In this document: one piece after another, positions 28,743-52,021 of the stretch
How the letters are laid out: each line of letters starts with the position of its first letter
Position numbering within the stretch: position 1 is the first letter of the stretch
Assembly: GCA_046348645.1 (NCBI GenBank)
Contig: JAXMDU010000004.1
Span: 32,645 to 96,644 of the forward strand
Reading direction: 5' to 3'
Origin: Alphaproteobacteria bacterium
GTDB lineage: Bacteria > Pseudomonadota > Alphaproteobacteria > JAXMDU01
DNA length: 64,000 nt
Translations under genes and position numbers: made by a program
The notes under the pieces: generated by a model
The model's input: the letters and a program-made list of their open reading frames with translations, nothing else
The model's database searches: none
What the model was told of the DNA's origin: nothing

Positions 28743-29789
28743 ATGGCCATTAGCAAGACGGCGTTTGTTTCTGGAGCACTGATCGGCGGCTTGGTTCTGG
28801 GCCTGGCAGGCGGCGCGAATGCCGCGCAGGTCAACGGACCCAAGGTGCAGTGGAATTTTTCCATGTGGGGGACGCCGCGCGCCGCCACCGTGGGGTTCGA
28901 GCATCTTGCCAAGCTCGTATCCGAGGCGACCGACGGCAACTTCACGATCAAGATCCATTACGGTGGCGCCCTTTCGGAGCCGAAGGAAAACCTCGATGGC
29001 GTCGCCATCGGCGCGTTCGAGATGTCGCTGGTGGCAACCGGGTTCGTTCCCGGCAAGCTGCCGGTGGCGGATGGCTGCGCGCTTCCCATGCTACCGACAC
29101 CGACCGTCCATCACACCCGGGTCGTGCGCGAGACGTTCTACAAGCACCCCGACCCAAACCGCGAACTGACCGGCTGGCAATCGGTTCTCATCATGCCGAT
29201 GCCGTTCGGCGCCAACGAATTCGCGGGCAAGGGCGAGCCACCGCTGACGCTGGACGGCTGGAAGGGCAAGCGGGTGCGCGCGCTGAGCGGCGATGCCAAG
29301 GCGATGAAGGCGCTGGGCGCGGTTCCCCAGAACCTGCCAACCCCGGAAGCCTATGGCGCGCTGGAGCGCGGCCTGCTCGATGCCGCATCCAGCGGCTACT
29401 ATTCGATCCAGGCCTTCCGCTGGCACGAGCTGACCGATTGGTACACGACCAACATGGCGCTTTCCTCGGCCATGTCGGTCGTTCCCGCCACCAAGAAGGC
29501 CTATGACGCCCTGCCCCCACAGTACAAGAAACTGCTGATGGACAAGGTTCCAGCCTCGCTCGACGCGTGGGAAAAAGCCTATACCGATGCCGACCTTGCG
29601 GCGCTTGAGGTCTTCAAGAAGAAGGGCATGCGAGGGATCACCTATTCGCCGGCCGACCTTGCCAAGCTGGATGCCGCCGCCCGGCCGATCTGGAACGAGT
29701 GGGTCGCCGACGTGACCAAGAAAGGCTACAAGGGCAAGGAATTGCTTGACCTGATGCTGGCCACGGCCAAGACCGTCAAGACCTCTTAG
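28743..29789 (+). CDS. periplasmic solute-binding protein, TRAP DctP-like family (orphan)
   Basis: Signal peptide MAISKTAFVSGALIGGLVLGLAGGANA; DctP-like blocks (LVSEATDGNFTIKIHYGGAL, DGWKGKRVRALSGDAKAMKALGAVPQN, ALERGLLDAA). The ORF-track N-extension from 28215 looks spurious. Confidence 0.55.
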   Translation: MAISKTAFVSGALIGGLVLGLAGGANAAQVNGPKVQWNFSMWGTPRAATVGFEHLAKLVSEATDGNFTIKIHYGGALSEPKENLDGVAIGAFEMSLVATGFVPGKLPVADGCALPMLPTPTVHHTRVVRETFYKHPDPNRELTGWQSVLIMPMPFGANEFAGKGEPPLTLDGWKGKRVRALSGDAKAMKALGAVPQNLPTPEAYGALERGLLDAASSGYYSIQAFRWHELTDWYTTNMALSSAMSVVPATKKAYDALPPQYKKLLMDKVPASLDAWEKAYTDADLAALEVFKKKGMRGITYSPADLAKLDAAARPIWNEWVADVTKKGYKGKELLDLMLATAKTVKTS

Positions 29790-29890
29790 GGCAAGACATC
29801 ATAGCGCCCGGGCCATTGCAGCAACGGCCGATCCATTGACCGGCACAAACAAGGCGGCGCCAGCGGTGCCGCCTTGTCCCTTTGTCCAGA

Positions 29891-29932
29891 CTGCATTGCT
29901 GGCACTGCATTGCTGGCGCTGCATTGCCGGTC
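29891..29932. repeat. 3 tandem 14-bp units CTGCATTGCTGGCN
   Basis: ctgcattgctggca / ctgcattgctggcg / ctgcattgccggtc, downstream of SBP gene 28743-29789. Confidence 0.7.
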
Positions 29933-30026
29933 GTTGAGAAACTGAGTATCCTGCAGTGTTGTCGGCTTTCGTGGTCGGCAAGCACGCAACATCCTGGAAA
30001 CCCTGGAAACTAAGGATCCCAAGACG

Positions 30027-31091
30027 ATGCCGATGATTCGATCGATCACCCGCCTTGGCGCGGTGGGCGCGTGTGCGCTGGGCCTGACCGCCCTGGCCGC
30101 GGCTGCCGGCGTTCCAGCCTTGGCCGCCACCGTGGATGGGCCGAAAGTGAACTGGAACTTCAACATGTACGGCCCGAAGCGCGCCGTGACGGCCGGGCCC
30201 GAGGAGCTTGCGCGGCTGGTCTCCGAGGCGACGGGCGGCAATTTCAACATCCAGATCCACTATGCCGAAATTCTCGGCCCGCCGCGCGAGGCGCTCGACG
30301 CCATCAGCATCGGCGCCTACGAGATTACGCTTGTTGTCAGCGCTTTCACGCCCGGCAAGCTGCCGGTCGTCGAAGGCCTGGGGCTGCCGATGCTGCCGAC
30401 CCCCACCATCCATCACGGTCGCGCCATGCGGGAAGGGTTCTTCACCCATCCGGTGCCGAATGCGGATGTGGCGCGGTGGAAGGCAAAGCTGATCACGCCG
30501 ATGCCCATTCCGTCGAACGAATTCGTCGGCAAGGGCAAGCCGCCCGCCACCCTGGCAGATTGGAAGGGGCTGCGTTTTCGCGCCCTGGGCGGTGATGCAA
30601 AGACGGTCCAGCTTCTGGGCAGCACGGCGCAGAACTTCCCACCCCCGGAAATCTATGGCGCCATGGAACGTGGCCTGCTGGACGGGACCTCGTCGACCCT
30701 GAACTCGCACGGCGCGTTCAAGATCTATGAAATCGGCAACTGGTACACCACCAACATGGCCATTTCCTCGGCGCCGTCCATCATCATCGCGGGAATGGGC
30801 GCCATCAATGCCTTGCCGCCCCAATACCAGAAGCTGCTCTATAATTCGGTCGAGGCAACGAACGACTACTGGCTCAAGACCCTGCTGGCCGATGACCTGA
30901 AGGCGATCGAGGCGTTCAAGGCGAAAGGCCTGACCCCGGTCACGTTCAGCGATGCCGATCTTGCCCGCATTCGGGAACTGGTCTCGCCGGTCTGGAACGA
31001 ATGGGTCGCCGACATGGACAAGCGCGGCTATCCCGGCAAGGAGCTGCTGCAACTTATGATCGATAGCGCCAAAAAGGCGAAGGTAAGCTGA
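30027..31091 (+). CDS. periplasmic solute-binding protein, TRAP DctP-like family (orphan)
   Basis: Paralog of 28743-29789; signal peptide, conserved VNWNFNMYGPKRA and DWKGLRFRALGGDAK. Confidence 0.55.
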   Translation: MPMIRSITRLGAVGACALGLTALAAAAGVPALAATVDGPKVNWNFNMYGPKRAVTAGPEELARLVSEATGGNFNIQIHYAEILGPPREALDAISIGAYEITLVVSAFTPGKLPVVEGLGLPMLPTPTIHHGRAMREGFFTHPVPNADVARWKAKLITPMPIPSNEFVGKGKPPATLADWKGLRFRALGGDAKTVQLLGSTAQNFPPPEIYGAMERGLLDGTSSTLNSHGAFKIYEIGNWYTTNMAISSAPSIIIAGMGAINALPPQYQKLLYNSVEATNDYWLKTLLADDLKAIEAFKAKGLTPVTFSDADLARIRELVSPVWNEWVADMDKRGYPGKELLQLMIDSAKKAKVS

Positions 31092-31154
31092 GAAAGTAAG
31101 CTGATCGGGGGCCGGGCCGGCTGCGACCGGCTGGCCCTGTTCGAGCCCGATGAC

Positions 31155-31200
31155 GGCGGCCGGATCGATAGCAGATCGATCCGGCCGCCGTTTTTCTTTT
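31155..31200 (+). terminator. rho-independent terminator
   Basis: Perfect 15-bp inverted repeat GGCGGCCGGATCGAT ... ATCGATCCGGCCGCC followed by GTTTTTCTTTT. Confidence 0.75.
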
Positions 31201-31407
31201 GTCCCCCTGGTTTTGTCTCCCCAGAACCCTGGCCAGAACCCTGGGATCTGGCCTTGCCATGCCAGGGCTTGATCGGCAGGGTTTGCGGGAAAAGGGCGCG
31301 GCACGGTAGATTGTTGCCAGCCGCGACCGTGGACCGCCCGCGGGGATCAAGGCGGTATAATAGCGGGCGCAGAAGCCGCCCGCCGATTCAACAGAGGAGG
31401 TTTACGC

Positions 31408-32454
31408 ATGATGACGCCGCTGCGTCTGATGACCATGCCGCTGACCGCAGGCATGCTGGCTGTCGGGCTTGCCATGCCGGCCCCAGCCCAGACCGTTCAG
31501 GGACCGAAGGTCGAGTGGAACTTCGGCATGTACGGCAACAAGCGCGCCGCCACGGCCGGGTTCGAAGAACTGTCGCGCCTGGTCGGCGAAGCGACGAACG
31601 GCAATTTCAACATCAAGATCCATTATGGCGAAGCGCTTGGCCCGTCGAAAGAAGCGCTCGATGCGATCAAGATCGGCGCCTATGAGATGACGCTGGCCGT
31701 CAGCGGCTTCACGCCTGGAAAGCTGCCGGTGGTCGAAGGTCTTGGCCTGCCGTTCCTGCCCACACCAACCATCCACCACGTCCGCGCCATGCGCGAAGGC
31801 TTCATGCAGCACCCGACGCCGAAGGCCGAAGTTTCCGGCTGGGGTGCGGTGACCATCACGCCAATGCCGATCGGCTCGAACGAGTTCCTTGGCAAGGGCA
31901 AGCCGCCGGTCATGCTTGCGGACTGGAAGGGCTTGCGGGTCCGCGCGCTGAGCGGCGACGCCAAGGCCATGCGCCTGATCGGGGCCGTGCCGCAGAACGT
32001 GCCGACGCCGGAAACCTATGGCGCCATCGAGCGCGGCCTGCTCGATGCCGCCTCGACACTTTACTACGCCCACGCCGCTTTCCGCACCCACGAGGTGACG
32101 AACTGGTACACCACCAACATGTCGCTCTCGTCGGCACCGTCGCTGGTTCTGGCCGGGGCCAAGGCATTCGACGCATTGCCGCCCCAATACAAGAAACTGG
32201 TGATGGATTCGGTCAAACCGTCCAACGATTTCTGGGTCAAGGTGCTGATCGAGGACGATGCCAAGGCGCTTGAGCTGTTCAAGCAGAAGGGGCTGGTGGC
32301 GGTGACCATCCCGGAATCCGAATTGGCGAAGCTGCGCGAGCTGGTGAAGCCGATGTACCAGGAATGGATCGACGACATGAACAAGCGCGGCCACAATGGC
32401 CAGGAGCTGTTCGATCTGATGATCAAGAGCGCCCAGGCCTACAAGGGCGCCTGA
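31408..32454 (+). CDS. periplasmic solute-binding protein, TRAP DctP-like family (orphan)
   Basis: Third tandem paralog; RBS GAGGAGG; signal peptide MMTPLRLMTMPLTAGMLAVGLAMPAPA. Confidence 0.55.
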   Translation: MMTPLRLMTMPLTAGMLAVGLAMPAPAQTVQGPKVEWNFGMYGNKRAATAGFEELSRLVGEATNGNFNIKIHYGEALGPSKEALDAIKIGAYEMTLAVSGFTPGKLPVVEGLGLPFLPTPTIHHVRAMREGFMQHPTPKAEVSGWGAVTITPMPIGSNEFLGKGKPPVMLADWKGLRVRALSGDAKAMRLIGAVPQNVPTPETYGAIERGLLDAASTLYYAHAAFRTHEVTNWYTTNMSLSSAPSLVLAGAKAFDALPPQYKKLVMDSVKPSNDFWVKVLIEDDAKALELFKQKGLVAVTIPESELAKLRELVKPMYQEWIDDMNKRGHNGQELFDLMIKSAQAYKGA

Positions 32455-32491
32455 TCACGGGTGCGGCGTTCGCCACACTGATGGTCCGAAT

Positions 32492-32524
32492 GGGGCGGCG
32501 GGGAAACCCGCCGCCCTTTTCCAT
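32492..32524 (+). terminator. rho-independent terminator
   Basis: GGGCGGCGGG GAAA CCCGCCGCCC followed by TTTTCC. Confidence 0.65.
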
Positions 32525-32553: not shown

Positions 32554-34515
32554 TCAGAGCGCGAGACGCGCCTTCAATTCGTCGATCGCTTCGGGATTGA
32601 CCAGCGACGACGTGTCGCCCGCCGGTTCGCCCAGGATCACGGACCGCACCATCCGCCGCATGATCTTGAGATTGCGGGTCTTCGGCAGATCGGAAACGAA
32701 GATCACCTGCTTCGGCCGATAGGATGTTCCCATCTTGGCGACGACGGCGTTGGAAAGCTCGGCCCGCAGGCTCTCGCTTTCCGGAACACCCGGCATCGGC
32801 ACGCAGACGCAGCCGACCGCATTGCCCTTGATGTCGTCGGGCAGGCCGATCACCGCCGCCTCGACGATCTTGCCGGTCGCCATCAGCACACCTTCGATCT
32901 CGGCGGGTCCGGTGCGCTTGCCCGAGATCTTGAGCGTATCGTCGGACCGGCCAAGCAGGTACCACAGGCCGTCGTCGTCCCTGATGGCCCAGTCGCCATG
33001 GCGCCAGACGTTCTCGTACATCGACCAGTAGGTTTCGAGGTAGCGATCGTCGTCCTTCCACAGGCTGCGGGTCAGGCCGATGCTGGGCAGCGTCATCACC
33101 AGTTCGCCCACCTGGCCCGGACCGACCGGCTTGCCGTTGTCGTCGAAGATGCGGGCGCCGGTTCCCGGCATGGGACCCGTGAACGAGCATGGCTTCATCG
33201 GGTGGATCACGGTCGAGCCGACAATGCCGCCCCCCACCTCGGTGCCGCCGGTATAGTTGAGGATGGGGACCCGCTTCTGCCCCACTCTCTCGAACAGCCA
33301 CACCCAGGCATCGTGCGTCCAGGGTTCGCCCGAGCCCATGATGATGCGCAGGGCCGAGAAATCATAACGATCGACTTCGTTGCCATAACGCATCAGCGAG
33401 CGCACCGTGGTGGGCGCGATGCCCTGATAGGTGATGCGCTGCTCCTGCATCAGGCGCCAATGGCGGCCGGTATCCGGATAATCGGGCGTGCCTTCGGCGA
33501 CGATCAGGCTGGCACCGTTCACGGTCGTGCCGACCGCGGTCATCGGCCCGACCAGCCAGCCCATGTCAGAGATCCACATCATGCGATCGGATTCGCGCAT
33601 GTCGAAGATCAGGCCGTAATCCATGGCCAGCCGCACGGTGAAGCCGGCATGGGACAGCTTGGTGCCCTTGGGCTTTCCCGTGGTCCCCGACGTAAAGACC
33701 AGAAGCGCCACGTCATCCGAGGCCATCGGCTCGGTCGCGGCCTCGGGCTTCTGCTTGGCGACCGATTCGTGCCACCACAGGTCGCGGCCTTTCTGCATGG
33801 GACAGACAACCTTGTCGCCCAGGTTGTGGACCACAAAGACGCGCCGCACCGTCGGGCAGGATTGCAGGGCCTCGTCCAGGGTCTGCTTCATCGCGATCTC
33901 GCGGCCACGCCGCCAGGTGCCATCGGCGGTGACCACTGCTTTTGCTTCGCCTTCTTTCAGGCGCACGATGATCGGTTCGGTTCCGTAACCCGAAAAGAGC
34001 GGCAGCGCGATGGCCCCGATCTTGATGATCGCGAACAGGGCCACATAGGCTTCGGGCAGCCCAGGCATATAGAGACTGATAACATCGTTCTTGCCCAGGC
34101 CTTCGGCGCGGAACGCATTCGCAAGCCGGCAGACTTCGGCATCGAATTCGGCATAGGTGAAGCTCTTCTGCTTGTCGTCCTCGGTGATGCCGACCATGTA
34201 GGTGCGGTTCCAGAGCGCGGTGTTCCGATGCCGATCGATGCAGTTGAGGACGATGTTGGTCTTGCCGCCCACGCACCAGCGCGTCCAAGGTGCTCCTTTC
34301 GAGGTGTCCATCACCTTGGAGTAGGGTTCAAAGAAGCGGATATCGAGATACCGGATCAGCGCATTCCAATACCATTCGGGGTCGGCTTCGGAGCGGGCAT
34401 TGAGGTCTTCATAGCTCTTGGCGCCGACCGCATCGATGAAGGCCTGGATACGGCTTTGAGCGATGGTCTCTGGGCTGGGGCGCCAGGCGACGTCGCTTTT
34501 CTTGATCATCTCCAT
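32554..34515 (-). CDS. AMP-forming acyl-CoA synthetase (acetyl/propionyl/acetoacetyl-CoA synthetase-like)
   Basis: AMP-binding motifs FTSGTTGKPKG, YTGGTEVGG, GELV, ISGKR; start at internal ATG (MEMIKKSD) after AAGGAGA. Confidence 0.8.
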   Translation of the reverse strand: MEMIKKSDVAWRPSPETIAQSRIQAFIDAVGAKSYEDLNARSEADPEWYWNALIRYLDIRFFEPYSKVMDTSKGAPWTRWCVGGKTNIVLNCIDRHRNTALWNRTYMVGITEDDKQKSFTYAEFDAEVCRLANAFRAEGLGKNDVISLYMPGLPEAYVALFAIIKIGAIALPLFSGYGTEPIIVRLKEGEAKAVVTADGTWRRGREIAMKQTLDEALQSCPTVRRVFVVHNLGDKVVCPMQKGRDLWWHESVAKQKPEAATEPMASDDVALLVFTSGTTGKPKGTKLSHAGFTVRLAMDYGLIFDMRESDRMMWISDMGWLVGPMTAVGTTVNGASLIVAEGTPDYPDTGRHWRLMQEQRITYQGIAPTTVRSLMRYGNEVDRYDFSALRIIMGSGEPWTHDAWVWLFERVGQKRVPILNYTGGTEVGGGIVGSTVIHPMKPCSFTGPMPGTGARIFDDNGKPVGPGQVGELVMTLPSIGLTRSLWKDDDRYLETYWSMYENVWRHGDWAIRDDDGLWYLLGRSDDTLKISGKRTGPAEIEGVLMATGKIVEAAVIGLPDDIKGNAVGCVCVPMPGVPESESLRAELSNAVVAKMGTSYRPKQVIFVSDLPKTRNLKIMRRMVRSVILGEPAGDTSSLVNPEAIDELKARLAL

Positions 34516-34688
34516 CGGTCCGGTCTCCTTTGCTGTCCTGGCGACGCGGCGCTCGCCACCACCCATGATGTCATTATATTCATGGTTGGCTCAACCACCC
34601 GCTATAATGGCCAGCCCGCCGGTCAGTTGTGCCTTGCGCTGGCCGGTGGCAGTGCTGTGTAATCCATCAGCAGAACGGAGGCTAGGCC

Positions 34689-35603
34689 ATGTACGCCATC
34701 CTTCGCATCGTCGGTCGGATCGTCGCCGTGACCGGCCTGCTGGCCGGCTTGGCCGCGGGATATGGATCGGGTGCGCGCGCCGGAACGGCCGTCGATCTTG
34801 CTCTTGTCATGGCGATCGACGTGTCAGGCAGCGTCGATGAGACCGAGGCCCGCCTTCAGCGCCAGGGCTATGTGGCGGCCTTTTCCCATCCCGAGGTCAT
34901 CGCCGCCATCCGGTCCGGCACGCTGGGCCGCATCGCCGTGCTCTACTTCGAATGGTCGGATTACTCGCATCAGTCACTGGTGGTCGATTGGACGGTCATC
35001 GACAGCGACACCGCCGCCCGCGCCTTTTCAACCCTGCTAGCCGAAACACCCATCAGCCGCGGGCGACGCACCTCGATCTCGGGCGCCATCGATTTCGGCG
35101 TCGCCCAGTTCAGTCGCAGCCCGTTCGACGGCACCCGGAAAGTGATCGATATTTCGGGTGATGGTCCGAACAACAGCGGCCCCACCGTCACCAGCCCGCG
35201 CGACGGCGCGCTGGCGCAGGGCATCACCATCAACGGGCTGCCGGTGGTGAATGACCGTATGGACCCCTACGGCGCGCCGCAGATGCCCGATCTGGACCGC
35301 TACTACCTGGCCTGCGTGATCGGCGGCCCCGGATCGTTCATCGTCGTGGCCAAGGATTTCCACGATTTCGCCAATGCGGTACGGCGCAAGCTGGTCCTTG
35401 AGATCGCGGGCGGCGAGCCCGACGCGCGACACGCCAGCAACCAATCCGTTCCCGCCCAACTGCGCATTGCCCAGGCTGCGCCGGCGCCGCTGCCGCAATA
35501 CGGCCGCAGCCCACAGGCCATTTTCCCGCCGGGTTGCGATGCCGGCGAGCGCTACATGCGGCAGCGATTCCTGGATTTCAATTCGGGCGGCGGCTTCCGC
35601 TGA
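34689..35603 (+). CDS. DUF1194 (vWA-like) domain protein, secreted
   Basis: Signal peptide; DLALVMAIDVSGSVDETEARLQRQGY...GRIAVLYFEW pattern as I recall for DUF1194. Confidence 0.6.
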   Translation: MYAILRIVGRIVAVTGLLAGLAAGYGSGARAGTAVDLALVMAIDVSGSVDETEARLQRQGYVAAFSHPEVIAAIRSGTLGRIAVLYFEWSDYSHQSLVVDWTVIDSDTAARAFSTLLAETPISRGRRTSISGAIDFGVAQFSRSPFDGTRKVIDISGDGPNNSGPTVTSPRDGALAQGITINGLPVVNDRMDPYGAPQMPDLDRYYLACVIGGPGSFIVVAKDFHDFANAVRRKLVLEIAGGEPDARHASNQSVPAQLRIAQAAPAPLPQYGRSPQAIFPPGCDAGERYMRQRFLDFNSGGGFR

Positions 35604-35636: not shown

Positions 35637-37178
35637 TCAGACGATTCGCGTCTTGTGGCCTTCCCAGTAGCGGGCCTTGATCCGATGCTTGGCAAGCTTG
35701 CCGCTGGGAAGGCGGGGCAATTCAACTTCGAAATCGACCGAGCGCGGGCACTTGATGTGGGACAGATGCGCCCGGCAAAAACTGATCAGTTCGGCCGCGG
35801 TTTCGGGTGACGCCGAGGCCGGATCGACAAGCTGCACGACCGCCTTCACCTCTTCGCCAAATTCGGCATTGGGAACACCGATCACCGCCACGTCCGTCAC
35901 CTTGGGGTGGGTGACAAGCAGGTTTTCCGCTTCCTGCGGATAGATGTTCACGCCGCCGGAAATGATCATGTGGGCCTTGCGGTCGGTCAGGTAGAGATAG
36001 CCGTCCCGGTCGAGATACCCCACGTCGAACAGGGTCGACCAGCCCTGGGCATTATGGGCACTGGCCGTTTTTGCGGGATCATTGTGATAGGCAAAGGCCG
36101 GACCGCCCTCGAAATAGATCACGCCTTCTTCGCCGGCGGCGCATTCCTGGCCGTCATCGCCGACGATCCGCACACGGCCGATCACGGCCTGGCCGACCGA
36201 GCCCTTGTGGGCAAGCCAGGTCGGGGAATCGATGCTGGTCAGGCCGTTGCGTTCCGAGCCTGCGTAGTATTCCCACAGGATCGGCCCCCACCAGCCAATC
36301 ATCGTCTCCTTGACCGGAATCGGGCATGGCGCCGCCGCATGCACGGCGCAGCGGTGACTGGAAAGATCAAACCCGCGCCGCACCGCCTGGGGCAGCTTCA
36401 GCATGCGGATGAAATGCGTGGGCACCCATTGGCTGTGCGTGATGTGATGTTTTTCGATCAGTTGAAGCGCAAGGAGGGCGTCAAACTTTTCCATCACCAC
36501 GACGGTCGCGCCAAGCCGCTGGAAGCGCATGGTGAAGTTGAGCGGCGCCGCGTGATAGAGCGGGCCGGGCGATAGATAGACGGCATCGCCGCTGCCGCCG
36601 TAAAGCCCGATGATCAGGGTCTGGACGGTCGAATCCTGGCCCATCGGCCCCGCCGGCGGCTTTCGGTAAACGCCCTTGGGCCGGCCCGTGGTACCCGATG
36701 AATAGAGCAGGGCCGAGCCTTCGCTTTCATCCGGAAGCGGATCGGGCGATTCGCCCGCGATCGCCGCCTCGAAGGACGCGAAGCCCGGCTCGACGCCATC
36801 GATCATCAGCCAATGCGCAACCCCTGGAACCAGGGCGGGAAGCGCCCCCGCCACCGCCGCGCCGGCCTTGCTGCTGACAACCGCCCTGGCACCGGAATCG
36901 GCCACGATATAGGCGGCCTCGTCCGGCGTCAGGTGGGTACTGATCGGCGCGAAGAACAAGCCCGAACGCTGCGCCGCCCATGCGACGACGAAGAGCTGAG
37001 CCTGATTTTCGATCATGAAGGCGATGGCATCGCCCGCCTTGAGACCGAGCCTTCGGAACAGCCGCGCGCAGCGGTTGGACTGCGCGTCAAGCTCGCCATA
37101 GGTAAGCCGCGCCCCGCCCGGCTCGACAATGACCGCAGGCTTGTCGGGCCAAGCCTGCGCATGGACTCCTGGCCACAT
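35637..37178 (-). CDS. AMP-dependent acyl-CoA synthetase/ligase
   Basis: LYSSGTTGRPKG, YYAGSERNG, GYLYLTDRKAHMIISGGVNIYPQE. Confidence 0.8.
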   Translation of the reverse strand: MWPGVHAQAWPDKPAVIVEPGGARLTYGELDAQSNRCARLFRRLGLKAGDAIAFMIENQAQLFVVAWAAQRSGLFFAPISTHLTPDEAAYIVADSGARAVVSSKAGAAVAGALPALVPGVAHWLMIDGVEPGFASFEAAIAGESPDPLPDESEGSALLYSSGTTGRPKGVYRKPPAGPMGQDSTVQTLIIGLYGGSGDAVYLSPGPLYHAAPLNFTMRFQRLGATVVVMEKFDALLALQLIEKHHITHSQWVPTHFIRMLKLPQAVRRGFDLSSHRCAVHAAAPCPIPVKETMIGWWGPILWEYYAGSERNGLTSIDSPTWLAHKGSVGQAVIGRVRIVGDDGQECAAGEEGVIYFEGGPAFAYHNDPAKTASAHNAQGWSTLFDVGYLDRDGYLYLTDRKAHMIISGGVNIYPQEAENLLVTHPKVTDVAVIGVPNAEFGEEVKAVVQLVDPASASPETAAELISFCRAHLSHIKCPRSVDFEVELPRLPSGKLAKHRIKARYWEGHKTRIV

Positions 37179-41160: not shown

Positions 41161-41447
41161 CAGCCGGCCTTCTCTGACCCCGGCCTTCTCTGACCAGCGC
41201 AATCGGGCCAGGCTAGGGCAGGACCGGGCGATAATGCCGCGCGCGATCTCCTCGCCATCGGCCACAACCACATCCGCGCCGAAAGATTTGAGATAGGCTT
41301 GCTGCTCGCCCTTCGGGGCGTGCCCCGCGATGCGGATCCCGGTGTTTGCGGCCCGCCGGCCGCGGGGCCATTCAAGACCTGGCCCTGGTCATGCAGCCAG
41401 ACTGATTTGAATTATAATAAATCAATACCGTCGCTGTTGACCACCGC

Positions 41448-41461
41448 GTTGACTTCAGTCA
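41448..41461. promoter_or_regulatory. FNR/FixK-type box TTGAC-N4-GTCAA upstream of ubiT
   Basis: Perfect palindrome ttgacttcagtcaa centred about 34 bp upstream of the predicted ubiT start, next to an AT-rich stretch. Confidence 0.5.
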
Positions 41462-41487
41462 AAGACGACCCCAGCAATTCACCGAGA

Positions 41488-43055: not shown

Positions 43056-43064
43056 GACGGCGCC

Positions 43065-43997
43065 ATGACCGCCATGCCACCCGGGCGAATGGGTCTCACG
43101 CTGGGGCCGGTGCTGTTCCATTGGAATGGCACGCAGCTTTCCGATTTCTATGTCCGGATCGCGGACGAAGCGCCGGTCGAGCGGGTCTGCATCGGCGAGG
43201 TAGTCTGTTCGAAGCGCTTGCCAAGCGTCATCGACAGCCTGGCCCGGGCCATCGAACGCCTGGAACGGGGCGGCAAGGAGGTCATTCTTTCGACCCTTTC
43301 CCTCGTCACCCTGGAGAACGAAAGAAACCGGGTCACGGATCTGGTTCGCGACGCCGCCATGCCCGTCGAAGTGAACGATATTTCGTCCGTTCCGGCGGTT
43401 CAGGGACGCGCCTTCACGGTCGGCCCGTTCGTCAACATCTACAATGAAAGCACGCTCGGCTATTTTGCGCGCCATGGCGCGACGCGCATCTGCCTGCCGC
43501 CCGAACTGCCGCTGTCGTCCATCGCGGTCCTGGCCCGGACCGGCGCGCCGCTTGGCGTTGCCTGCGAGGTTTTCGGCTTCGGGCGTGTGCCGCTTGCCAT
43601 GTCAGGCCGCTGCTATCACGCCCGCCTGCACGGGACGCGCAAGGATGCCTGCCAGTTCGTGTGCGAAAAGGACGCCGACGGGCGGCCCGTCGATACGCTG
43701 GACGGGCAGCCGTTCCTGGCGGTGAACGGCGTCATGACCATGTCGCAGAGCTGCGTCAACCTGATCGAGGATGTCCGCGACATCGCGGGCGCCGGGATCG
43801 ATTCGATCCGCCTGTCGCCCCAGACCTGCGACATGGTCCGGGTCGCGAAGATTTTCCGCGCCGCCATCGATGGCGAGCGGGACCCGGCCGCCGCGCGCCA
43901 GGACCTGGCCGCGCTCATTCCCTTCGCGCCCTTTTCGAACGGGTTCCTGCACGGGACGCGCGGCGTCGCCTATGTCGGTCCCGCAGAGGCCGGCTGA
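43065..43997 (+). CDS. ubiV: U32-family O2-independent ubiquinone hydroxylase subunit UbiV
   Basis: U32 family (YhbV-like), cysteines CEVFGFGRVPLAMSGRCYHARLHGTRKDACQFVC; last 20 codons lie in the left direct repeat. Confidence 0.7.
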   Translation: MTAMPPGRMGLTLGPVLFHWNGTQLSDFYVRIADEAPVERVCIGEVVCSKRLPSVIDSLARAIERLERGGKEVILSTLSLVTLENERNRVTDLVRDAAMPVEVNDISSVPAVQGRAFTVGPFVNIYNESTLGYFARHGATRICLPPELPLSSIAVLARTGAPLGVACEVFGFGRVPLAMSGRCYHARLHGTRKDACQFVCEKDADGRPVDTLDGQPFLAVNGVMTMSQSCVNLIEDVRDIAGAGIDSIRLSPQTCDMVRVAKIFRAAIDGERDPAAARQDLAALIPFAPFSNGFLHGTRGVAYVGPAEAG

Positions 43998-44217: not shown

Positions 44218-47200
44218 CCGCCGAGCTCACCCTCAGCATCCCATCAACCCAGGAGCACAATAACCCCAGACTCTACTTGTGAATACGATCAAAGCCAGGA
44301 GCACTTCAGCGTCACAGAATGAGAATTCTGTGGAAGCACACTTTTTACGCTTCTTCGCTCCGTTTTTTCGTTGTTGCAACCCACCGCCGTGACGCGCCTC
44401 CTGCCTTGCCTCGCTTTTTCTTCCCTCCCAGATTCACAGCCCCCTTACACTTCGGGTAGTCAGCGCATCCATAGAATGGGCCGAAACGTCCGTTGCGAAG
44501 CTTAGTAGGCCCACCGCATTCAGGGCATGGAGGCCCATCCTTCTGCAGTGACGGATCGGACGGGGAGCTTTTTCGTCCAGACGTGCCCCGCGCACTGTCG
44601 TGCCAGCCGCAGCCTTCCTCATCCTCGCATGTAAAGTACGGGCCGTAGCGGCCCTCCGCATAATATGTTCGCGAGTTGCAGTTCGGGCATCGCGGATTTT
44701 CTGCCTCGGCTACCGTCGAAGCTGCCTCCGCTCGCGCGATCCCAATCCTCTTCGAGACGAATGCAGCAACCTGTTCTGCGAACCCTTCGCTTTCGGCCCT
44801 GGTCATGAACTCATCTGTTCGAGACGTATGTGACAAGGGATTGAGAGAGCCCGACCAGATGACGCGATTATCAATCAAGACGATCTTCTCATGAATGTCG
44901 CGCCGGCAATCGACGACCACCCCAATTCCTTCCAAAGCATCCAAGGCTTGTTTCCCAAGCTCCTCGGGAATTGAGCCGTTGAACCGGGGTGGCCTCGTTA
45001 CACACCGAATTGCGACTCCGTCGCCGATTTTTGTTCTGAACAGGTCTCCATAGGACGCTACACGCTCCGGCGTTATGAAGCCGGAATACATGACAATCGA
45101 CCGCTCCGCCCGGTTCATATCCACCAGACAAGCGTCGGCGAATGTTTTGGAGTGAAACAGCCCGAGCTTCTCTGCATCCAGATCAAGCTCAACAATGCCC
45201 ATGAGGTCTTTCAGATCGCGTTCAATCGGACGCAACGCCATCACTTCGGAAGCGTCGATCACACGACCATGTTCCTGCGCAGTGTGCAGGATACCTCTAA
45301 GCAACGCGGTGCTGGGCAGATGCATATCGAGATAGGTCAGATTGGCCAGCACCAAGAGGTGCTCTTGAGCCCGGCTGACGGCGACGTTCATGAGTCGGGC
45401 ACCGACGTGCTTAGGAGGGATACCCTGCACAAACAACCCAATCCTCCGACTTGGCCCAATGCTTTCAGGGATATCGAGGATCATCATGCGCTTTTCGTCG
45501 CCTTGATAACGATGGACTGTACCGGTCGCGGCGAGTTGGGCCACTGGCTCCATATCCCCAATAAGCTTCTGCAACAGTTTGGCTTGTGCTGCATAGGGCG
45601 TGCATACACCGAGCGCGCTTGAGCTATCCAGAAATCCGTTTGATGCTAAATAGCCGACAAGATTTCGGATGAGAAGCGCATTCAGAAGGTTGAATCGGGA
45701 TTTAAAGATGTTTCGGCTTTCGAACGGCCATAGTCTGGACGTATCGATGATGGTAAGCGCCCCGTCATATGGCGCAGGCGGTCGTGGGCCGTTGGGCCGA
45801 TGGCGTTCTTTGGCCGTTGTAAGCCTTCCTTGATACATGTCTGTCGCGATGAGGCCGCATATCTCGTCCGTCATGCGATACTGAGTATCGAGCAGCGCAT
45901 ATCTGGGATCTTCGCTCTTTCCGTCGATGCCCGCCGACTCAAAGACATCCTGCCCAATGAGATCGTGGATTGCCTGTTGGCGGCTCGGCAAGATCGGCGG
46001 GAGCTGTCGGAAATCACCAGAAACGATCACCCGTTCCGTTGACAGGCCCGCAGCGAAATAAAGCGCGGGCAGAAGCACCATCGACGCTTCGTCAATCACG
46101 ACAACATCAAACCGGCCTATGTCACGTGCCTGGAGGTACGACTTTGCAACAGTTGTCCCGATCACGCGCGCCTCACGCATGATCGACGCTTCCATTTCCG
46201 CTAACCGCCGCGCAATTTCCTGAAGTTCGGCCACAAGCGGCTGACGTTCACCATCAATCGCCTGTCTGTCCCTTTCAAGCTGTTGCCGGTCTTGTACAGA
46301 GAGCTGGGATGCCAAGGATTCAGCCGAAGATCGCACTTCGTTACGTTTGTTCTCTAATGTCTTGGCTTCGGCCGTCCCGTTTCGAACAATTGCTTCCTGA
46401 CGCGCTATTTCCGATTCGGCACGTCGATAGTCGCTTATGATTATCTCATCGGAACGAAGAAAAACGCGACGCAACACGCCTGCGCTTTTCCGCTGTTGCA
46501 GCTCAGCTTTGCAGTCCTGAATTTGTTGCTGCGCCTTTTCATAGGATGCGGCAGCAGTCTTTATGGCGTTAAGGCATGTGTTCAGTTGCTGATTGAGGGA
46601 TGTCAGCTTGCTTTCGGTCCTATCAAGCCGCGCAAAGAGCTGAAGCTTTTCGTTTATAGATGTCGCTTTGGCGTCGAACAGCGCCACTTGTTCTTCCAGC
46701 TCGTGTTGTCGCTCCCTGAGTCCCTTCGACAACCGTTCGATAATACCGTCTGTCGTCACATAGGATGCGTACTCGTTCTTAAGCTCCGGAAGGACAATGT
46801 TGCCGATGCGAACAACTTTGCCTTCTTCAAACGCGGCATGTTTGAGATGCTCCAGATGACGGCAAAGCTTATAGATAAGCTGATCAACAGCCTGGTTCGT
46901 GTTGGAGCAGACGAGGATACGCTTTCCAGCGTCAAATGCGGCTTGAATGCCGACGGACAGTGTTTGCGTTTTTCCCGTCCCCGGAGGTCCCCACAGGTAT
47001 GAAATGCTGTGCTCCAGCATCAAGTGCAGTGCAGCGTTCTGGCTATCATTCAGATCGTGAGGCGGCACGCCGATTGGCGACACTTCGGAGTTGTGGATTT
47101 CCTTGGATACGACGCTATCCGCCACTGATGCAGATAGATTCAGTTCGCCCTTGCCCACCTGATCAAGGCGGTCTTTCAGTGCTTCGATCAGAGCCGTGTT

Positions 47201-48103
47201 GTCGATGAGAAGTATGCAACGTCGGATTGATGGTCCCAGGTTGCCATCCAGCGAAATAAGTATGGTCCCTTCCGATATTGATACGATTTGCCCTCTGCTA
47301 CGTCGGCCATCGACTTCAATTTCTATTCGCGCTTCCTCGAAAATCTCCGCTTCTTCAGAGAACGGGAATACATAGATAGGTTGGCCCGCCTGCGTGTCTA
47401 CGACTTTGCCGCGCTCCAGTTCATAACGGCGACTGCCGCTACCTTCTCTTCGCATTTCGCTTATCAGGGCGTCGAGCGCGAGAACATAGCGCTGTATGTT
47501 TGTGGAATCCTGCGGCAGATCGATAACCAGATCGGTGTCCAGAGCCGGTTGGTAGGCATCAGGCTTTCCCCTAACCCCTGGAGCAGCGATCCCGGTGAAA
47601 TGTTGCGGTATCCTCCTGTCATCAGGTTGCTCGTCCGGGATAGACGGAGTTGATACTTCAGCAGGCCTTTGGCTCGCCGAAGCGAATGATGCCGCTGGGT
47701 CTGAAGATGTACGGGAAGGTACGGGCCGGTTCTCCGGGCGCACGCCAACAGGCTGCCCCTCAAACAAGTGGCCGGTTGGCGCAGGGCCTTCCCTTGATTG
47801 GTTCTCTATTGCTGTGAGGCGTTCTTCAACTCGGCTACGAAGCCTCTTTGCCCGGTCGGTCTTCCGGTGTTCAAGCTCATCGAGAAGGCTCCGCATCGTG
47901 GCCCGCTCTTCGCCTTTTTCGGCGAAAAGCTTCTCAAGCTGGACTATTCCATGCTGGATGAAGGTCCGCTTCATTCTTGGTCGCCTGCCTCAAGCGCCGT
48001 TCCTTTGCTCCCAGGAAAACGTATGCCACTTCGGATGGTAAGAATTTCTCAAGACCATAGTGTTGCCCCCTAGAATAGTGCCGACGGCGAGGTAACGCTT
48101 CTT
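44218..48103. mobile_element. putative horizontally acquired insertion (about 3.9 kb, lower GC), no integrase/transposase, single cargo gene
   Basis: GC about 47-52% in sampled lines versus about 60-75% in flanks; bounded by the 281/283-bp direct repeats; interrupts the 3' region of the HMG-CoA lyase-like gene. Confidence 0.55.
44345..47974 (-). CDS. 1209-aa fusion: Upf1-like SF1 helicase + PLD (HKD) nuclease domain + two topoisomerase-type C4 zinc ribbons
   Basis: Helicase motifs WGPPGTGKTQT, VCSNTNQAVDQL, VVVIDEASM, SGDFRQLPP, QYRM, VHRYQGDEKRMMILD, NVAVSRAQEHL, with about 250-aa coiled-coil insert between Walker A and B; HKD motif HEKIVLIDNRVIWSGSLN; ribbons CPNC...C..C and CPEC...C..C; K/R-rich tail. 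Confidence 0.75.
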   Translation of the reverse strand: MKRTFIQHGIVQLEKLFAEKGEERATMRSLLDELEHRKTDRAKRLRSRVEERLTAIENQSREGPAPTGHLFEGQPVGVRPENRPVPSRTSSDPAASFASASQRPAEVSTPSIPDEQPDDRRIPQHFTGIAAPGVRGKPDAYQPALDTDLVIDLPQDSTNIQRYVLALDALISEMRREGSGSRRYELERGKVVDTQAGQPIYVFPFSEEAEIFEEARIEIEVDGRRSRGQIVSISEGTILISLDGNLGPSIRRCILLIDNTALIEALKDRLDQVGKGELNLSASVADSVVSKEIHNSEVSPIGVPPHDLNDSQNAALHLMLEHSISYLWGPPGTGKTQTLSVGIQAAFDAGKRILVCSNTNQAVDQLIYKLCRHLEHLKHAAFEEGKVVRIGNIVLPELKNEYASYVTTDGIIERLSKGLRERQHELEEQVALFDAKATSINEKLQLFARLDRTESKLTSLNQQLNTCLNAIKTAAASYEKAQQQIQDCKAELQQRKSAGVLRRVFLRSDEIIISDYRRAESEIARQEAIVRNGTAEAKTLENKRNEVRSSAESLASQLSVQDRQQLERDRQAIDGERQPLVAELQEIARRLAEMEASIMREARVIGTTVAKSYLQARDIGRFDVVVIDEASMVLLPALYFAAGLSTERVIVSGDFRQLPPILPSRQQAIHDLIGQDVFESAGIDGKSEDPRYALLDTQYRMTDEICGLIATDMYQGRLTTAKERHRPNGPRPPAPYDGALTIIDTSRLWPFESRNIFKSRFNLLNALLIRNLVGYLASNGFLDSSSALGVCTPYAAQAKLLQKLIGDMEPVAQLAATGTVHRYQGDEKRMMILDIPESIGPSRRIGLFVQGIPPKHVGARLMNVAVSRAQEHLLVLANLTYLDMHLPSTALLRGILHTAQEHGRVIDASEVMALRPIERDLKDLMGIVELDLDAEKLGLFHSKTFADACLVDMNRAERSIVMYSGFITPERVASYGDLFRTKIGDGVAIRCVTRPPRFNGSIPEELGKQALDALEGIGVVVDCRRDIHEKIVLIDNRVIWSGSLNPLSHTSRTDEFMTRAESEGFAEQVAAFVSKRIGIARAEAASTVAEAENPRCPNCNSRTYYAEGRYGPYFTCEDEEGCGWHDSARGTSGRKSSPSDPSLQKDGPPCPECGGPTKLRNGRFGPFYGCADYPKCKGAVNLGGKKKRGKAGGASRRWVATTKKRSEEA

Positions 48104-48386
48104 GAACGGGTTCCTGCACGGACGCATGGCGTCGCCTATGTCGGTCCCGCAGAGGCCGGCTGAAATCGCCCTATTCCGCCGCCTTCTGGCGGAACTTCGA
48201 GAGCGAGCTCCGAATGCATGATCTTGCCGTTGAGATTACGGCCGATCATGCCTTCCACCATCTGCGCGCAACCGATCAGCTTGTCGAGATCGATGCCGGT
48301 CTCGATGCCAAGCTCGGCGCACAGGAACACCATGTCCTCGGTGCAGATGTTGCCGGCCGCGCCCTTGTGGCCGGCGAAGGGACAGC
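48104..48386. repeat. right copy of about 283-bp direct repeat
   Basis: Duplicate of 43937-44217; contains a degenerate copy of the ubiV 3' end and the 3' end of the HMG-CoA lyase-like gene. Confidence 0.85.
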
Positions 48387-49129
48387 GCGAGCGCGGCGAG
48401 CGAACTGTCGAACAGATCGACGCCCATTTCGAGCGCCGCGTAGAAATTCGCCGGGCCAAGGCCGCGAGTATCGTGCAGATGGAGGCCGATCCGCACCTCG
48501 GGCCAGATCTCGCGCACGATGCCGATGCGGCGCTTGATCGCTTCCGGATTGGCCCAGCCGACCGTGTCGGCAAGATAGAGGGCCGGGATCTTGTAATCAT
48601 GCTCGGCGGTCACCGCTTTGATCAGCCGCACGTTTGTGGCGATCTGGGTCTCGGGGATCTCGCCTTCCATGTTGCAGCCGAAGGCGGTCGCGATATAGGC
48701 GGCCGAGGGCGCGACACGATGCTGCTTGTAGAGCTCGATCCATTCGTGCTGATCCTTGCGGTACTGCTCGATGCTGCGGTTGTTGTTCTGGGTGCAGAAG
48801 GCCTCGCTGGTGGAATAATAGATGACGCCTTCAAGGGTTACGTTCCTGAGATCGAGGGCCCGCAGGAAGCCCTGCTTGTTGAGCCAGGTCGCCGTATATT
48901 TCACGCCCGGCCGCGGATGGATGGCGGCGAAGAATTCGGGCGTGTCGGCCATCGGCGGCACCCGTTTCGGGTTGACGAGCGAGGCGACGTTGATGTGCTT
49001 CAGACCGGTATCGCTCAGGGCATCGATCAGGGCCACCCGCTGTTCCAAGGGATAGATGGTTTTTTCGATCTGGAAGCCCTCGCGCGGGCCTTCCTCGCGG
49101 AATTCGACGAAACGGGGCAGCGTCGCCAT
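48136..49129 (-). pseudogene. HMG-CoA lyase-like (DRE-TIM metallolyase) gene, frameshifted at the repeat/insertion junction
   Basis: N-terminal body (FREEGPREGFQIEKTIYP...RIGLHLHDTRGLGPANFYAALEMGVDLFDSS) in ORF 48236-50107; C-terminus (CPFAGHKGAAGNICTEDMVFL...) in ORF 48136-48600; frame changes at about 48387-48395. Confidence 0.6.
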
Positions 49130-49327: not shown

Positions 49328-50488
49328 GTGAGCGAGCGACCAGCGATTGTCAGCGCCTTTGAGCACCCGTTGCGAAAAGGCCCCGACTACAGCGCCCTGC
49401 GATTCATCGGCGAAAGTGCGGCAGGCGCGCTGGCCGATGCCGGGCTGAAGCCCGGCGATATCGACGGGCTGGCAACCGCCGGCGAAACGATGGCGGTCAA
49501 CTATATTGCGGAATACCTGAACCTGAAGCCGCGCTGGTTCGATTCGACGTCGATCGGCGGATCGTCGTTCCTGTCGCACATCATGCACGCGTCGGATGCG
49601 ATCCGTCAGGGCAAGGCGCGCGCGGTGCTGCTGTGCTATGGTAGCACGGCGCGATCGTCGGCGGCGGCGCTGGGCGGCAGCGCCCGCACCCTGGTCATCG
49701 ACGCCCAGGGCGTCGGCGATTCCGACTATTACTACACACCCTATGGCGTCAACCTGGTATCGCAATACGCGCTGGTGGCCAGGCGCCACATGCACGAATA
49801 CGGCACCACCCGCGAGCAGCTGGCCGAGATTGCCGTCACCTGCCGCACCCATGCGGCGCTCAACCCGCTGGCCCGCTTTCGCGACCCGATCACGGTCGCC
49901 GATGTCGTGAAGTCGCGCCCGGTCGCCGAACCTCTGCACCTGCTGGATTGCTGCGTGATCACCGATGGCGGCGGCGCGGTCATCGTCGCCGCGCCCGAGG
50001 TCGCCCGCAACTGCAAGAAGAAGCCGATCCGGGTGCTGGGCGGATCGGAAGCCGCCGCCCACCGCGAGGGCGGGCACCATCGCCTGCTTGACGTGGCGGC
50101 CAGGCAATCGGGCCCGGCCGCCTTTGCCGCGACCGGATTGAAGCCATCGGATGTCGATTTCTGCATGATCTATGACAGCTTCACCATCACGGTGATGACG
50201 ACGCTCGAGGGGCTTGGCTTCTGCAAGCCGGGCGAAGGCGGCGCCTTTGTGCAGGGCGGGCGCATCAGGCTAGGTGGCGCGCTTCCCATCAATCCCGATG
50301 GCGGTGCGCTTTCCAATCACCACCCGGGACGGCGCGGCATCTTCCTGGCCATCGAGGCAGTGCGCCAGTTGCGTGGCGAAGGCGGGCCCCGGCAGGTCAA
50401 GGATGCCAGGATCGCCCTCTGTCACGGAACCGGCGGCTACCTTTCTGACCGCCACAGCGGTGTCACTTTGCTGTTGGGAGCTGACTGA
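49328..50488 (+). CDS. thiolase-like protein (SCP-x/non-condensing thiolase type)
   Basis: GTG start after GGAGGA; thiolase-like blocks; translationally coupled to the downstream DUF35 gene (TGATG overlap). Confidence 0.7.
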   Translation: MSERPAIVSAFEHPLRKGPDYSALRFIGESAAGALADAGLKPGDIDGLATAGETMAVNYIAEYLNLKPRWFDSTSIGGSSFLSHIMHASDAIRQGKARAVLLCYGSTARSSAAALGGSARTLVIDAQGVGDSDYYYTPYGVNLVSQYALVARRHMHEYGTTREQLAEIAVTCRTHAALNPLARFRDPITVADVVKSRPVAEPLHLLDCCVITDGGGAVIVAAPEVARNCKKKPIRVLGGSEAAAHREGGHHRLLDVAARQSGPAAFAATGLKPSDVDFCMIYDSFTITVMTTLEGLGFCKPGEGGAFVQGGRIRLGGALPINPDGGALSNHHPGRRGIFLAIEAVRQLRGEGGPRQVKDARIALCHGTGGYLSDRHSGVTLLLGAD

Positions 50489-50898
50489 TGGACAAGGCAA
50501 CGAAACATCCCGCCCCGCCGATGACCCCGGAGTCGGCGCCCTATTGGAAGGCGGCGAGCAAGGGCGAGCTGCTGATCGGCTGGTGCGAGGACTGCAAGAA
50601 GCCGCACCACGCGCCCCAGGGGGTGTGCCCGTTCTGCTGGTCGTCGAAGACCCGCGCCAAGCCGGCCAGTGGACGCGGCAAGGTGAATTCCTTCACGGTG
50701 ATCCACCAGACCGCAATGCCCGATTTTGTCGGCCTGGTGCCCTTTGTGGTTGCCTATGTCGAGCTTGAAGAGGGCGTGTCGCTGGTCAGCAACATCGTCG
50801 AGTGCGAATGGAGCAAGGTCAGGATCGACATGCCGGTAGTCGCAACCTTCGAGACGGTAGCCGAGAACGTCGGCATCCCGCTGTTCAAGCCGGCCTGA
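50488..50898 (+). CDS. DUF35 Zn-ribbon/OB-fold protein (thiolase partner)
   Basis: CEDCKKPHHAPQGVCPFC zinc ribbon followed by OB-fold-like C-terminus; usual pairing with SCP-x-type thiolases. Confidence 0.65.
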   Translation: MDKATKHPAPPMTPESAPYWKAASKGELLIGWCEDCKKPHHAPQGVCPFCWSSKTRAKPASGRGKVNSFTVIHQTAMPDFVGLVPFVVAYVELEEGVSLVSNIVECEWSKVRIDMPVVATFETVAENVGIPLFKPA

Positions 50899-50933
50899 GC
50901 GCGACGAAGCGACGAAACCGGGATGGACGAAAA

Positions 50934-50968
50934 TGGGGCGGCCGCCTGGGGCCGCCCCGCCCTTTTCG
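50934..50968. terminator. bidirectional rho-independent terminator between convergent genes
   Basis: GGGGCGGCC gcctg GGCCGCCCC followed by gcccTTTTCG on + and aTTTTCG on -. Confidence 0.6.
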
Positions 50969-52021
50969 TCAGCTTGCGCCTTTCTTGGCCTCGCTCAGAA
51001 CGAAGTCGAGCATCTGCTGGGCGGGATAGCCCTTCGGCGTCATCTCCTTCACCCATTCGTCCCAGACGGGTTGCCCCCCGACACGGGCGAATTCCTCGCG
51101 CATGGCGGGCGGGATCACCACCGTCCTAACACCCCGTTTCTTGAAGGCATCCTCGGCCTTGTCTTCTTCGGCCTGCAGGGCGTCGCTCTGGGCTTTGTGG
51201 GCCGCGGGGGTGACATCGAGAATCACCTTCTTGTACTGGGGCGGCAGCTTGTTGAAGGCATCGCGATTGAAATCGACATTCGAGATCGACACGCCGAGCG
51301 CCAGGCCCTTCGTGTACCACTTGCTGATCTCGTGAAGCTTGTAGACCTCGAAGGCGTAATAGGCGAAACCGGCGGCGTCGATCACGCCGCGCTCCAGGCT
51401 GCCATAGACCTCGGGGCTGGTGACCGAGGTGGCCACGGCGCCAAGCTTGGCCATCGCCGCGCCCTGACCGCCGATCGCGCGCACCCGCAGGCCTTTCCAG
51501 TCGGAAAGCTTTTCCGGCGCCTTGCCGGTGCCCATGAACTCGTAGGACGGAATGACATTCGACAGGCCGTAATTGACGTTCCAGACATCGAAATCCCGCT
51601 TCACGAACGCATGCCGATGGAAGATATCCGAGACGCGTGTCTGGGTTCTCAGGTCATCGAGCGGAAGGAAGGGCAGGCTCAGCACCGCAAGGCCGGGCTG
51701 CTTGCCCGGCGCGAAGGCGGGCACCACCCATCCCGCTTCATAGGCCCCGAGCTTGAGGCCGTCCAGGACTTCCTTTTCAGGGGACAGGGTCGCGCCATAG
51801 ACGACCTCGATCCTGAAATTGCCGTTCGTCTCGGCGGCGACAAGTTCCGAGAACTTGTCCATCGAGATCGAAACGGCGCGTGGCTTGCCATAGGCGGCCA
51901 GCCGCCAGTGGACCTTGGGCCCGTCGACGGCGGCCTGGGCCGCCGCCGCAGAGCCGAAAACAAGCGCCGCCCCAAGCGTGATCGCCGCGACGGTCATACC
52001 AAAACGATAATGCAAGAACAT
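50969..52021 (-). CDS. periplasmic solute-binding protein, TRAP DctP-like family (orphan)
   Basis: Start MFLHYRFGMTVAAITLGAALVFGSAAAAQA after GGAGGA; fourth SBP paralog. Confidence 0.55.
   Translation of the reverse strand: MFLHYRFGMTVAAITLGAALVFGSAAAAQAAVDGPKVHWRLAAYGKPRAVSISMDKFSELVAAETNGNFRIEVVYGATLSPEKEVLDGLKLGAYEAGWVVPAFAPGKQPGLAVLSLPFLPLDDLRTQTRVSDIFHRHAFVKRDFDVWNVNYGLSNVIPSYEFMGTGKAPEKLSDWKGLRVRAIGGQGAAMAKLGAVATSVTSPEVYGSLERGVIDAAGFAYYAFEVYKLHEISKWYTKGLALGVSISNVDFNRDAFNKLPPQYKKVILDVTPAAHKAQSDALQAEEDKAEDAFKKRGVRTVVIPPAMREEFARVGGQPVWDEWVKEMTPKGYPAQQMLDFVLSEAKKGAS

Follow-up and report, generated by a model that had tools for sequence, protein, structure and literature searches.

Four DctP-type binding protein genes

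The DNA analysed here is a 64,000-nucleotide stretch of contig JAXMDU010000004.1 from an uncultured alphaproteobacterium (hereafter the window; GC content ca. 64%), and its subject is four genes encoding periplasmic substrate-binding proteins (SBPs) of the DctP family, the family associated with transporters of the tripartite ATP-independent periplasmic (TRAP) type. All four are orphans, i.e., they are not accompanied by genes for the TRAP membrane components DctQ and DctM (together, QM). Three of them lie in tandem on the plus strand: SBP1 at 28743-29789 (348 aa), SBP2 at 30027-31091 (354 aa) and SBP3 at 31408-32454 (348 aa; the copy chosen for modelling). The fourth, SBP4, is located on the minus strand at 50969-52021 (350 aa). 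The identity to SBP1 in a four-way alignment was 54% for SBP2, 57% for SBP3 and 37% for SBP4. A first-pass annotation of the window had proposed the same four genes, and all were found to be present and intact; for the fourth, the position given there was correct and the strand, left unstated, is minus.

According to the same annotation, each gene has its own signal peptide and ribosome-binding site (RBS), and both features were recovered. As judged by inspection rather than by a dedicated predictor, all four proteins start with a hydrophobic Sec-type leader that ends in A-x-A, with putative cleavage sites (at the slash) of ANA/AQV, ALA/ATV, APA/QTV and AQA/AVD in SBP1 to SBP4, respectively. 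Residues 1-21 of SBP3 were disordered in the structural model described below. A GGAGG-type RBS precedes SBP1 (GGAGGA), SBP3 and SBP4, and a weaker AAGGA precedes SBP2.

The terminators placed between the tandem genes by the first-pass annotation were recovered in part. A terminator scan called plus-strand hairpins 3' of SBP2 (31152-31192, with an 18 bp stem and a T-run to 31202) and 3' of SBP3 (32492-32517, with a T-run to 32527), the latter being common to the convergent CoA ligase gene. Both are strong. Between SBP1 and SBP2, a single weak hairpin with a poor T-run (ca. 29843-29880) was seen by eye and was not called by the scan. The density of terminator-like sites across the region was not above that in shuffled sequence (3 found, 4.2 expected). 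In addition, tandem repeats with a 14-nt unit flank SBP1 in the intergenic regions on both sides (28531-28579, 3.6 copies; 29890-29927, 2.7 copies).

Family assignment, fold and the conserved arginine

Profile searches placed all four proteins in the DctP family (PF03480), with scores of 96-118 bits where the cutoff is 23.4 (SBP1, 100.2; SBP2, 96.3; SBP3, 110; SBP4, 118.4) and alignments covering profile positions 13-283 of 286. The NCBIfam model TRAP_S1 (NF037995) was also matched above its cutoff of 50 bits, at 58-85 bits (85.4 for SBP1). The TIGR00787 (dctP) model gave 52-78 bits, below its cutoff of 175, and the sequences indicate that SBP1-4 belong to a divergent subfamily and are not classical C4-dicarboxylate DctP proteins. 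Two other identities were ruled out: TctC (PF03401), since DctP was the sole Pfam family at E ≤ 0.01, and TAXI, since Pfam and NCBIfam gave just DctP, TRAP_S1 and dctP. Sequence matches in the PDB were exclusively DctP-type TRAP SBPs (E values of 1e-17 to 1e-21, ca. 20-25% identity).

Structural modelling with AlphaFold2 (AF2) covered SBP3 among the four proteins. The model, built with 97 homologues, had a pLDDT of 92.9 and a pTM of 0.88 and showed the two-domain fold of TRAP SBPs. When this model was compared with the PDB using Foldseek, the 50 best matches were all TRAP SBPs (E values of 1e-18 to 1e-21, TM-scores of 0.75-0.94, 18-24% identity). The DctP assignment, which had previously been made from motif resemblance, is now backed by profile scores, PDB matches and a structural model. 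The top structural matches (TM-scores of 0.8-0.88) were the aromatic-acid binders 5iga and TarP (7nr2/7nra). A ligand assignment from these matches was rejected, because their identity was ca. 20% and dozens of other TRAP SBPs matched almost as well.

The first-pass annotation had also raised a conserved arginine for carboxylate binding as a point to check, and such a residue was found. R179 (SBP3 numbering), within WKGLRVRAL, was paired in the alignment with the GLKIRTL arginine of 4p47 and was invariant across the 97 homologues and all of SBP1-4. We take it to be the carboxylate-binding arginine, equivalent to Arg147 of SiaP. The DGxENP stretch that is usual in DctP proteins reads DAASS or DAAST in SBP1-4.

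Absence of TRAP membrane genes from the window

No DctQ- or DctM-like protein was found in the window, in agreement with the first-pass annotation. Among the open reading frames (ORFs) of at least 60 aa in all six frames of the 64 kb, none had four or more transmembrane-like segments. Hidden Markov models (HMMs) for DctQ and DctM were built from the genes located 3' of the SBP gene in related loci, and the seed examples from one such locus (L002) were identified by Pfam as DctQ (PF04290) and DctM (PF06808). These HMMs gave no match in the window, against 140 and 137 ORFs, respectively, in the fetched related loci. Neither a dctQ and dctM pair nor a fused dctQM gene lies beside any of the SBP genes, so that no complete TRAP transporter is encoded in the window. 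To the right of SBP4, the genes up to position 64000 all encode soluble enzymes.

The sole small membrane ORF (52402-52869, minus strand) encodes 155 aa with three transmembrane-like segments and had no Pfam match. It was rejected as a DctQ candidate, since it matched neither Pfam nor the DctQ HMM, lies in a low-GC insertion and has no counterpart in the syntenic contig L170. The ORF is located within a 781-bp low-GC segment (52209-53018) between SBP4 and a MaoC-like gene. A 29-bp stretch of terminator sequence, directly repeated without mismatch, borders the segment, which is missing in L170 and looks like a small insertion.

Across the window, a single membrane protein of the signalling type was seen, encoded at 9627-11504 (minus strand). 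Besides two transmembrane-like segments, its 625 aa include a HAMP domain together with a class III adenylate/guanylate cyclase domain, and its N-terminal ca. 300-350 aa had no Pfam assignment.

An orphan clade derived from transporter-linked relatives

A look-up of the exact SBP3 protein gave no record. The closest relatives of SBP1-4 came from metagenomes and from metagenome-assembled genomes (MAGs) labelled Alphaproteobacteria, with several paralogues sharing long MAG contigs. When genome and metagenome collections were scanned, the relatives obtained were mostly at 35-45% identity and served as the QM-linked comparison set; one close relative at 55% identity (L084) was on a 2.5-kb contig. 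In nearly every locus of the 35-45% relatives, the SBP gene was followed by a gene of ca. 215 aa with four transmembrane segments and then by one of ca. 435 aa with 12-14 transmembrane segments. A DctM match was found no more than 3 kb from the SBP in 138 of 194 SBP ORFs, most of the others being at contig ends, and dctQ started within ca. 100-200 bp of dctP in the QM-linked relatives. Five of the related loci (L023, L034, L036, L070 and L141) had a second SBP gene ca. 2.8 kb upstream of dctQ, which places two SBPs near one QM; this pattern may be a small-scale precedent for the sharing of a membrane unit by several SBPs.

The close relatives (at least 50% identity) with a readable gene context were all orphans (L082, L164, L165, L166, L170 and L171). 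Three of these contigs are syntenic with parts of the window. L082 carries three tandem SBP genes, a CoA ligase gene, a DUF1194 gene and two more ligase genes, in synteny with 28.7-38.9 kb of the window; L171 is syntenic with 19-30 kb and carries the SBP1 orthologue P0017; and L170 is syntenic with the neighbourhood of SBP4 and carries its orthologue P0072. No dctQM was found in any of the three, and dctQM was missing from four syntenic metagenome contigs in total. L166 itself carries three SBP genes. The orphan contexts in the related organism were always among genes for CoA-transferases, acyl-CoA dehydrogenases, enoyl-CoA hydratases or AMP-binding ligases. Five of the six orphan-context contigs came from one JGI sample and jointly contained at least eight SBP genes of the orphan clade; the related organism is represented in JGI sample 3300009868.

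In a neighbour-joining tree of 263 sequences with 60 bootstraps, SBP1-3 fell within a 44-member clade recovered in 60/60 bootstraps. All nine members of this clade with a known gene context were orphans and none was QM-linked. In its sister group, 140 of the 144 members with a known context were QM-linked and four were orphans. Given this contrast in QM linkage (140/144 versus 0/9; Fisher p = 7e-12), the orphan arrangement is unlikely to be due to chance. SBP4 fell in a smaller group, which also contained the orphans L170 and L166_2924 and a basal member, P0079, and had 33/60 support. The tree suggests that orphan status may have arisen once or twice, each time from transporter-linked ancestors. 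The SBP expansion is specific to a lineage within an uncultured alphaproteobacterial group and is derived from a family of ordinary dctP-dctQ-dctM operons.

Comparisons of orthologues were used to estimate selection on the orphan genes. SBP2 and SBP3 were each 80% identical to their L082 orthologues, with dN/dS values of 0.17 and 0.20, respectively, and SBP4 was 75% identical to P0072 in L170, with a dN/dS value of 0.17; dS was 0.6-1.0 in these comparisons. The dN/dS values of 0.17-0.20 indicate purifying selection, and the genes are therefore functional.

Conservation within the proteins was uneven. At 42 positions, the same residue was conserved at 90% or more in both the orphan clade and its QM-linked sisters. 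Another 12 positions conserved at 90% or more in the QM-linked sisters were variable in the orphan clade and differed among SBP1-4. In SBP3 numbering, the 12 are positions 40, 42, 83, 98, 147, 155-157, 200, 218, 245 and 280. Two of them (98 and 245) are cysteines in the transporter-linked sisters, where they are 97% conserved and possibly form a disulfide; the orphan clade varies at both positions, and SBP1-4 all have other residues there. As far as the alignment indicates, the pattern of retained and variable positions would fit ligand diversification on a retained scaffold.

Catabolic gene neighbourhood

The window is dominated by genes for CoA-dependent acid catabolism. It contains about eight family III CoA-transferases, four of which were identified by Pfam and the other four by synteny with L171, and at least four acyl-CoA dehydrogenases identified by either route. 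Enoyl-CoA hydratases, a short-chain dehydrogenase/reductase, a thiolase, an HMGL-like lyase and a carboxyltransferase are also encoded. Paralogues of CoA-transferases and acyl-CoA dehydrogenases are unusually dense at 11704-28530 and 53045-59963.

Several of these genes directly adjoin the SBP genes. A family III CoA-transferase gene (27310-28530, plus strand; PF02515, 356 bits) lies directly 5' of SBP1, an arrangement repeated in L171. Beside the SBP array, three genes on the minus strand encode AMP-binding acyl-CoA synthetases/ligases (32554-34566, 35637-37178 and 37212-38909), and a DUF1194 gene (34689-35603, plus strand) sits among them; this layout is kept in L082. Next to SBP4, a set conserved in L170 consists of a MaoC/mesaconyl-CoA-hydratase-like gene (53045-53500) and an acyl-CoA dehydrogenase gene (53584-54756), both on the minus strand, and two family III CoA-transferase genes on the plus strand (54928-56142 and 56139-57302).

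On its other side, SBP4 is neighboured by a thiolase-like (Thiolase_C_1) gene paired with a DUF35/ChsH2 OB-fold gene (49328-50898, plus strand), located between SBP4 and an HMGL-like lyase gene; no such pair occupies this position in L170. The HMGL-like gene (48136-49129, minus strand) lacks 2 bp that its L170 orthologue has, and its frame breaks just 5' of the conserved stretch GGCPFAGHKGAAGN, which is readable in another frame. The gene is either a pseudogene or affected by a sequencing error.

Proposed function and alternative explanations

SBP1-4 behave like orphans of the Bug (TctC) type and not like parts of a locally encoded TRAP transporter. They are functional secreted DctP proteins (TRAP-type, SBP family 7), parted from TRAP membrane genes, that probably feed organic acids to a distal DctQM. 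According to this proposal, SBP1-4 would be exported to the periplasm, where each paralogue would most likely bind a different organic acid via the conserved arginine. The loaded SBP would pass its acid to a membrane unit, a DctQM with genes at another site in the genome and probably with several SBPs to serve. After import, the adjacent CoA-transferases or CoA ligases would activate the acid, which the acyl-CoA dehydrogenases, hydratases and thiolases of the neighbourhood would then degrade.

Several points weigh against this proposal. The distal DctQM partner is a postulate, the DNA read being that of the window alone. From work on SiaP and SiaQM, TRAP membrane units are reportedly regarded as specific for their cognate SBP, and we know of no demonstration that many SBPs share one TRAP QM. 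The altered DGxENP stretch, together with the low TIGR00787 score, suggests that the binding or docking chemistry may differ from that of known DctP proteins. The frameshifted HMGL-like lyase gene may mean that the pathway beside SBP4 is decaying. Furthermore, the union of SBP4 with the SBP1-3 clade was weak (36/60 bootstraps), and P0079, the nearest basal relative of SBP4, is encoded in a normal dctPQM operon (L168).

It is also conceivable, although we hold it with less confidence, that SBP1-4 represent a DctP counterpart of the Bug proteins, i.e., a diversified orphan set that feeds one or a few DctQM units or docks on a non-TRAP partner. The presence of several paralogues per MAG contig and of at least eight genes in the one related sample would suit such a set. 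Many-to-one sharing of this kind is not known to occur in TRAP transporters, the membrane units of which are regarded as partner-specific.

The first-pass annotation had named two functional options, a transporter encoded elsewhere and sensing. A role in sensing appears unlikely. In that case the ligand-loaded SBP would report organic acids by docking on a membrane-bound signalling protein, which might be a chemoreceptor or sensor kinase or else the HAMP-nucleotide cyclase encoded at 9627-11504. Orphan SBPs that signal via membrane receptors are documented in other SBP families (PMC8461474; BctC/BctE, PMC5812351). The two transmembrane segments, HAMP domain and class III cyclase domain of the protein in the window would be compatible with such a role, as would the finding that no classical transcription regulator was present among the ca. 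44 window proteins scanned. However, no chemoreceptor or sensor kinase adjoins the orphan-clade SBPs in the window or in L082, L164, L166, L170 and L171, and L165 has just a lone response-regulator gene ca. 1.5 kb away. The cyclase gene is 17 kb from SBP1, and three tandem diverged paralogues amid catabolic genes suit nutrient capture better than signalling.

Recruitment of the SBPs by a non-TRAP membrane transporter encoded elsewhere, as in the pairing of a Bordetella TAXI SBP with GltS, is improbable. The association of a TRAP-family SBP with a non-TRAP permease has this precedent (PMC12344293), and the divergence of the present subfamily, with its scores below the TIGR00787 cutoff and its altered DGxENP stretch, would leave room for a different partner. 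In the precedent, however, the SBP gene overlaps the permease gene, whereas the 64 kb here contain no polytopic membrane gene and none recurs in the related loci. Moreover, nothing in the 42 positions shared with the QM-linked sisters points to an altered docking surface.

The two remaining explanations are poorly supported. That SBP1-4 are not true orphans, with dctQM located shortly beyond the window or missed because of the assembly or the cutting of the window, is very improbable. The visible sequence is limited to 64 kb and SBP4 lies 11.9 kb from the right-hand window end, but no less than 28 kb separates SBP1-3 from either end, far beyond the ca. 100-200 bp that normally separate a linked dctQ. 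The independent contigs L082, L170 and L171 are equally QM-less, and soluble enzymes account for all genes to the right of SBP4. Finally, that the genes are decaying, functionless remnants of former TRAP operons is scarcely credible: the frameshifted HMGL-like gene and two foreign-looking insertions near SBP4 would fit decay, but the four frames are intact with leaders and RBSs, dN/dS is low, and the binding arginine and the 42 family-conserved residues are kept.

Relation to known systems

TRAP transporters are usually described as having one binding protein per membrane unit, with both encoded together. Canonical DctP-type SBPs (DctP, SiaP and TarP; PDB 5iga, 7nr2 and 4p47) resemble SBP1-4 in their PF03480 domain, two-domain fold, strand arginine (KGL+x+R), Sec leader and size of ca. 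350 aa. In contrast, SBP1-4 reach only ca. 20-25% identity with any solved structure and do not attain the TIGR00787 cutoff. They also carry DAASS in place of DGxENP and lack dctQ and dctM, which their nearest transporter-linked relatives (35-45% identity) possess.

The first-pass annotation had likened the four genes to the orphan Bug/TctC proteins, and the paralogue expansion and the CoA-transferase, acyl-CoA dehydrogenase and CoA ligase neighbours support this likeness. In Betaproteobacteria, Bug genes often adjoin family III CoA-transferase genes. Orphan Bug/TctC proteins of Bordetella and Cupriavidus and AdpC of Rhodopseudomonas palustris likewise represent paralogue expansions beside catabolic genes. 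Large orphan expansions are well known in this family; their members have no adjacent membrane components and are presumed to draw on a small number of common membrane units (PMC5812351). SBP1-4 differ in belonging to an unrelated family (no PF03401 match) and in their host, an uncultured alphaproteobacterium. They also differ in scale: B. pertussis has 76 bug genes, against four SBP genes in the window and at least eight in one related sample.

Within the TRAP superfamily, orphan SBPs are an acknowledged minority, since "the vast majority ... are operonic" (PMC12344293). Those reported earlier were isolated DctP or TAXI genes, whereas the present case involves a whole, well-supported clade with tandem duplication and conserved synteny. 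No description of the SBP1-3 orphan clade was found in the literature, within a searchable library that is incomplete. The TAXI-GltS system of Bordetella pertussis (BP0403) comprises a TAXI-type SBP that has an extra domain, is dimeric and is encoded by a gene overlapping the gltS permease gene (PMC12344293). It is similar in that a TRAP-superfamily SBP occurs without TRAP membrane genes; SBP1-4, however, are standard-length DctP-type proteins with no membrane gene nearby.

Orphan TRAP SBPs and Bug/TctC expansions have already been described; SBP1-4 add an example and establish no new principle. The SBP1-3 clade would be a natural test case for whether or not several DctP-type SBPs can be served by one TRAP membrane unit; such sharing is for the most part an assumption for Bug/TctC proteins. 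SBP1-4 also provide a set with which ligands could be found for family III CoA-transferase pathways, which are poorly understood.

Other features of the window

Two further gene groups lie between the CoA ligase genes and SBP4. A 1209-aa protein encoded at 44345-47974 (minus strand) combines AAA_11/AAA_12 helicase domains, a PLD-like nuclease and a Top1-type zinc ribbon. This stretch has a GC content of 54-56%, and L170 has no such gene between its HMGL-like lyase and U32 genes; the gene is probably a foreign insertion and possibly related to defence. At 41299-43997 (plus strand), an SCP2-domain gene is followed by two genes of the U32 peptidase family, a set that is conserved in L170 near the SBP4 neighbourhood and presumably resembles UbiT, UbiU and UbiV of oxygen-independent ubiquinone synthesis.

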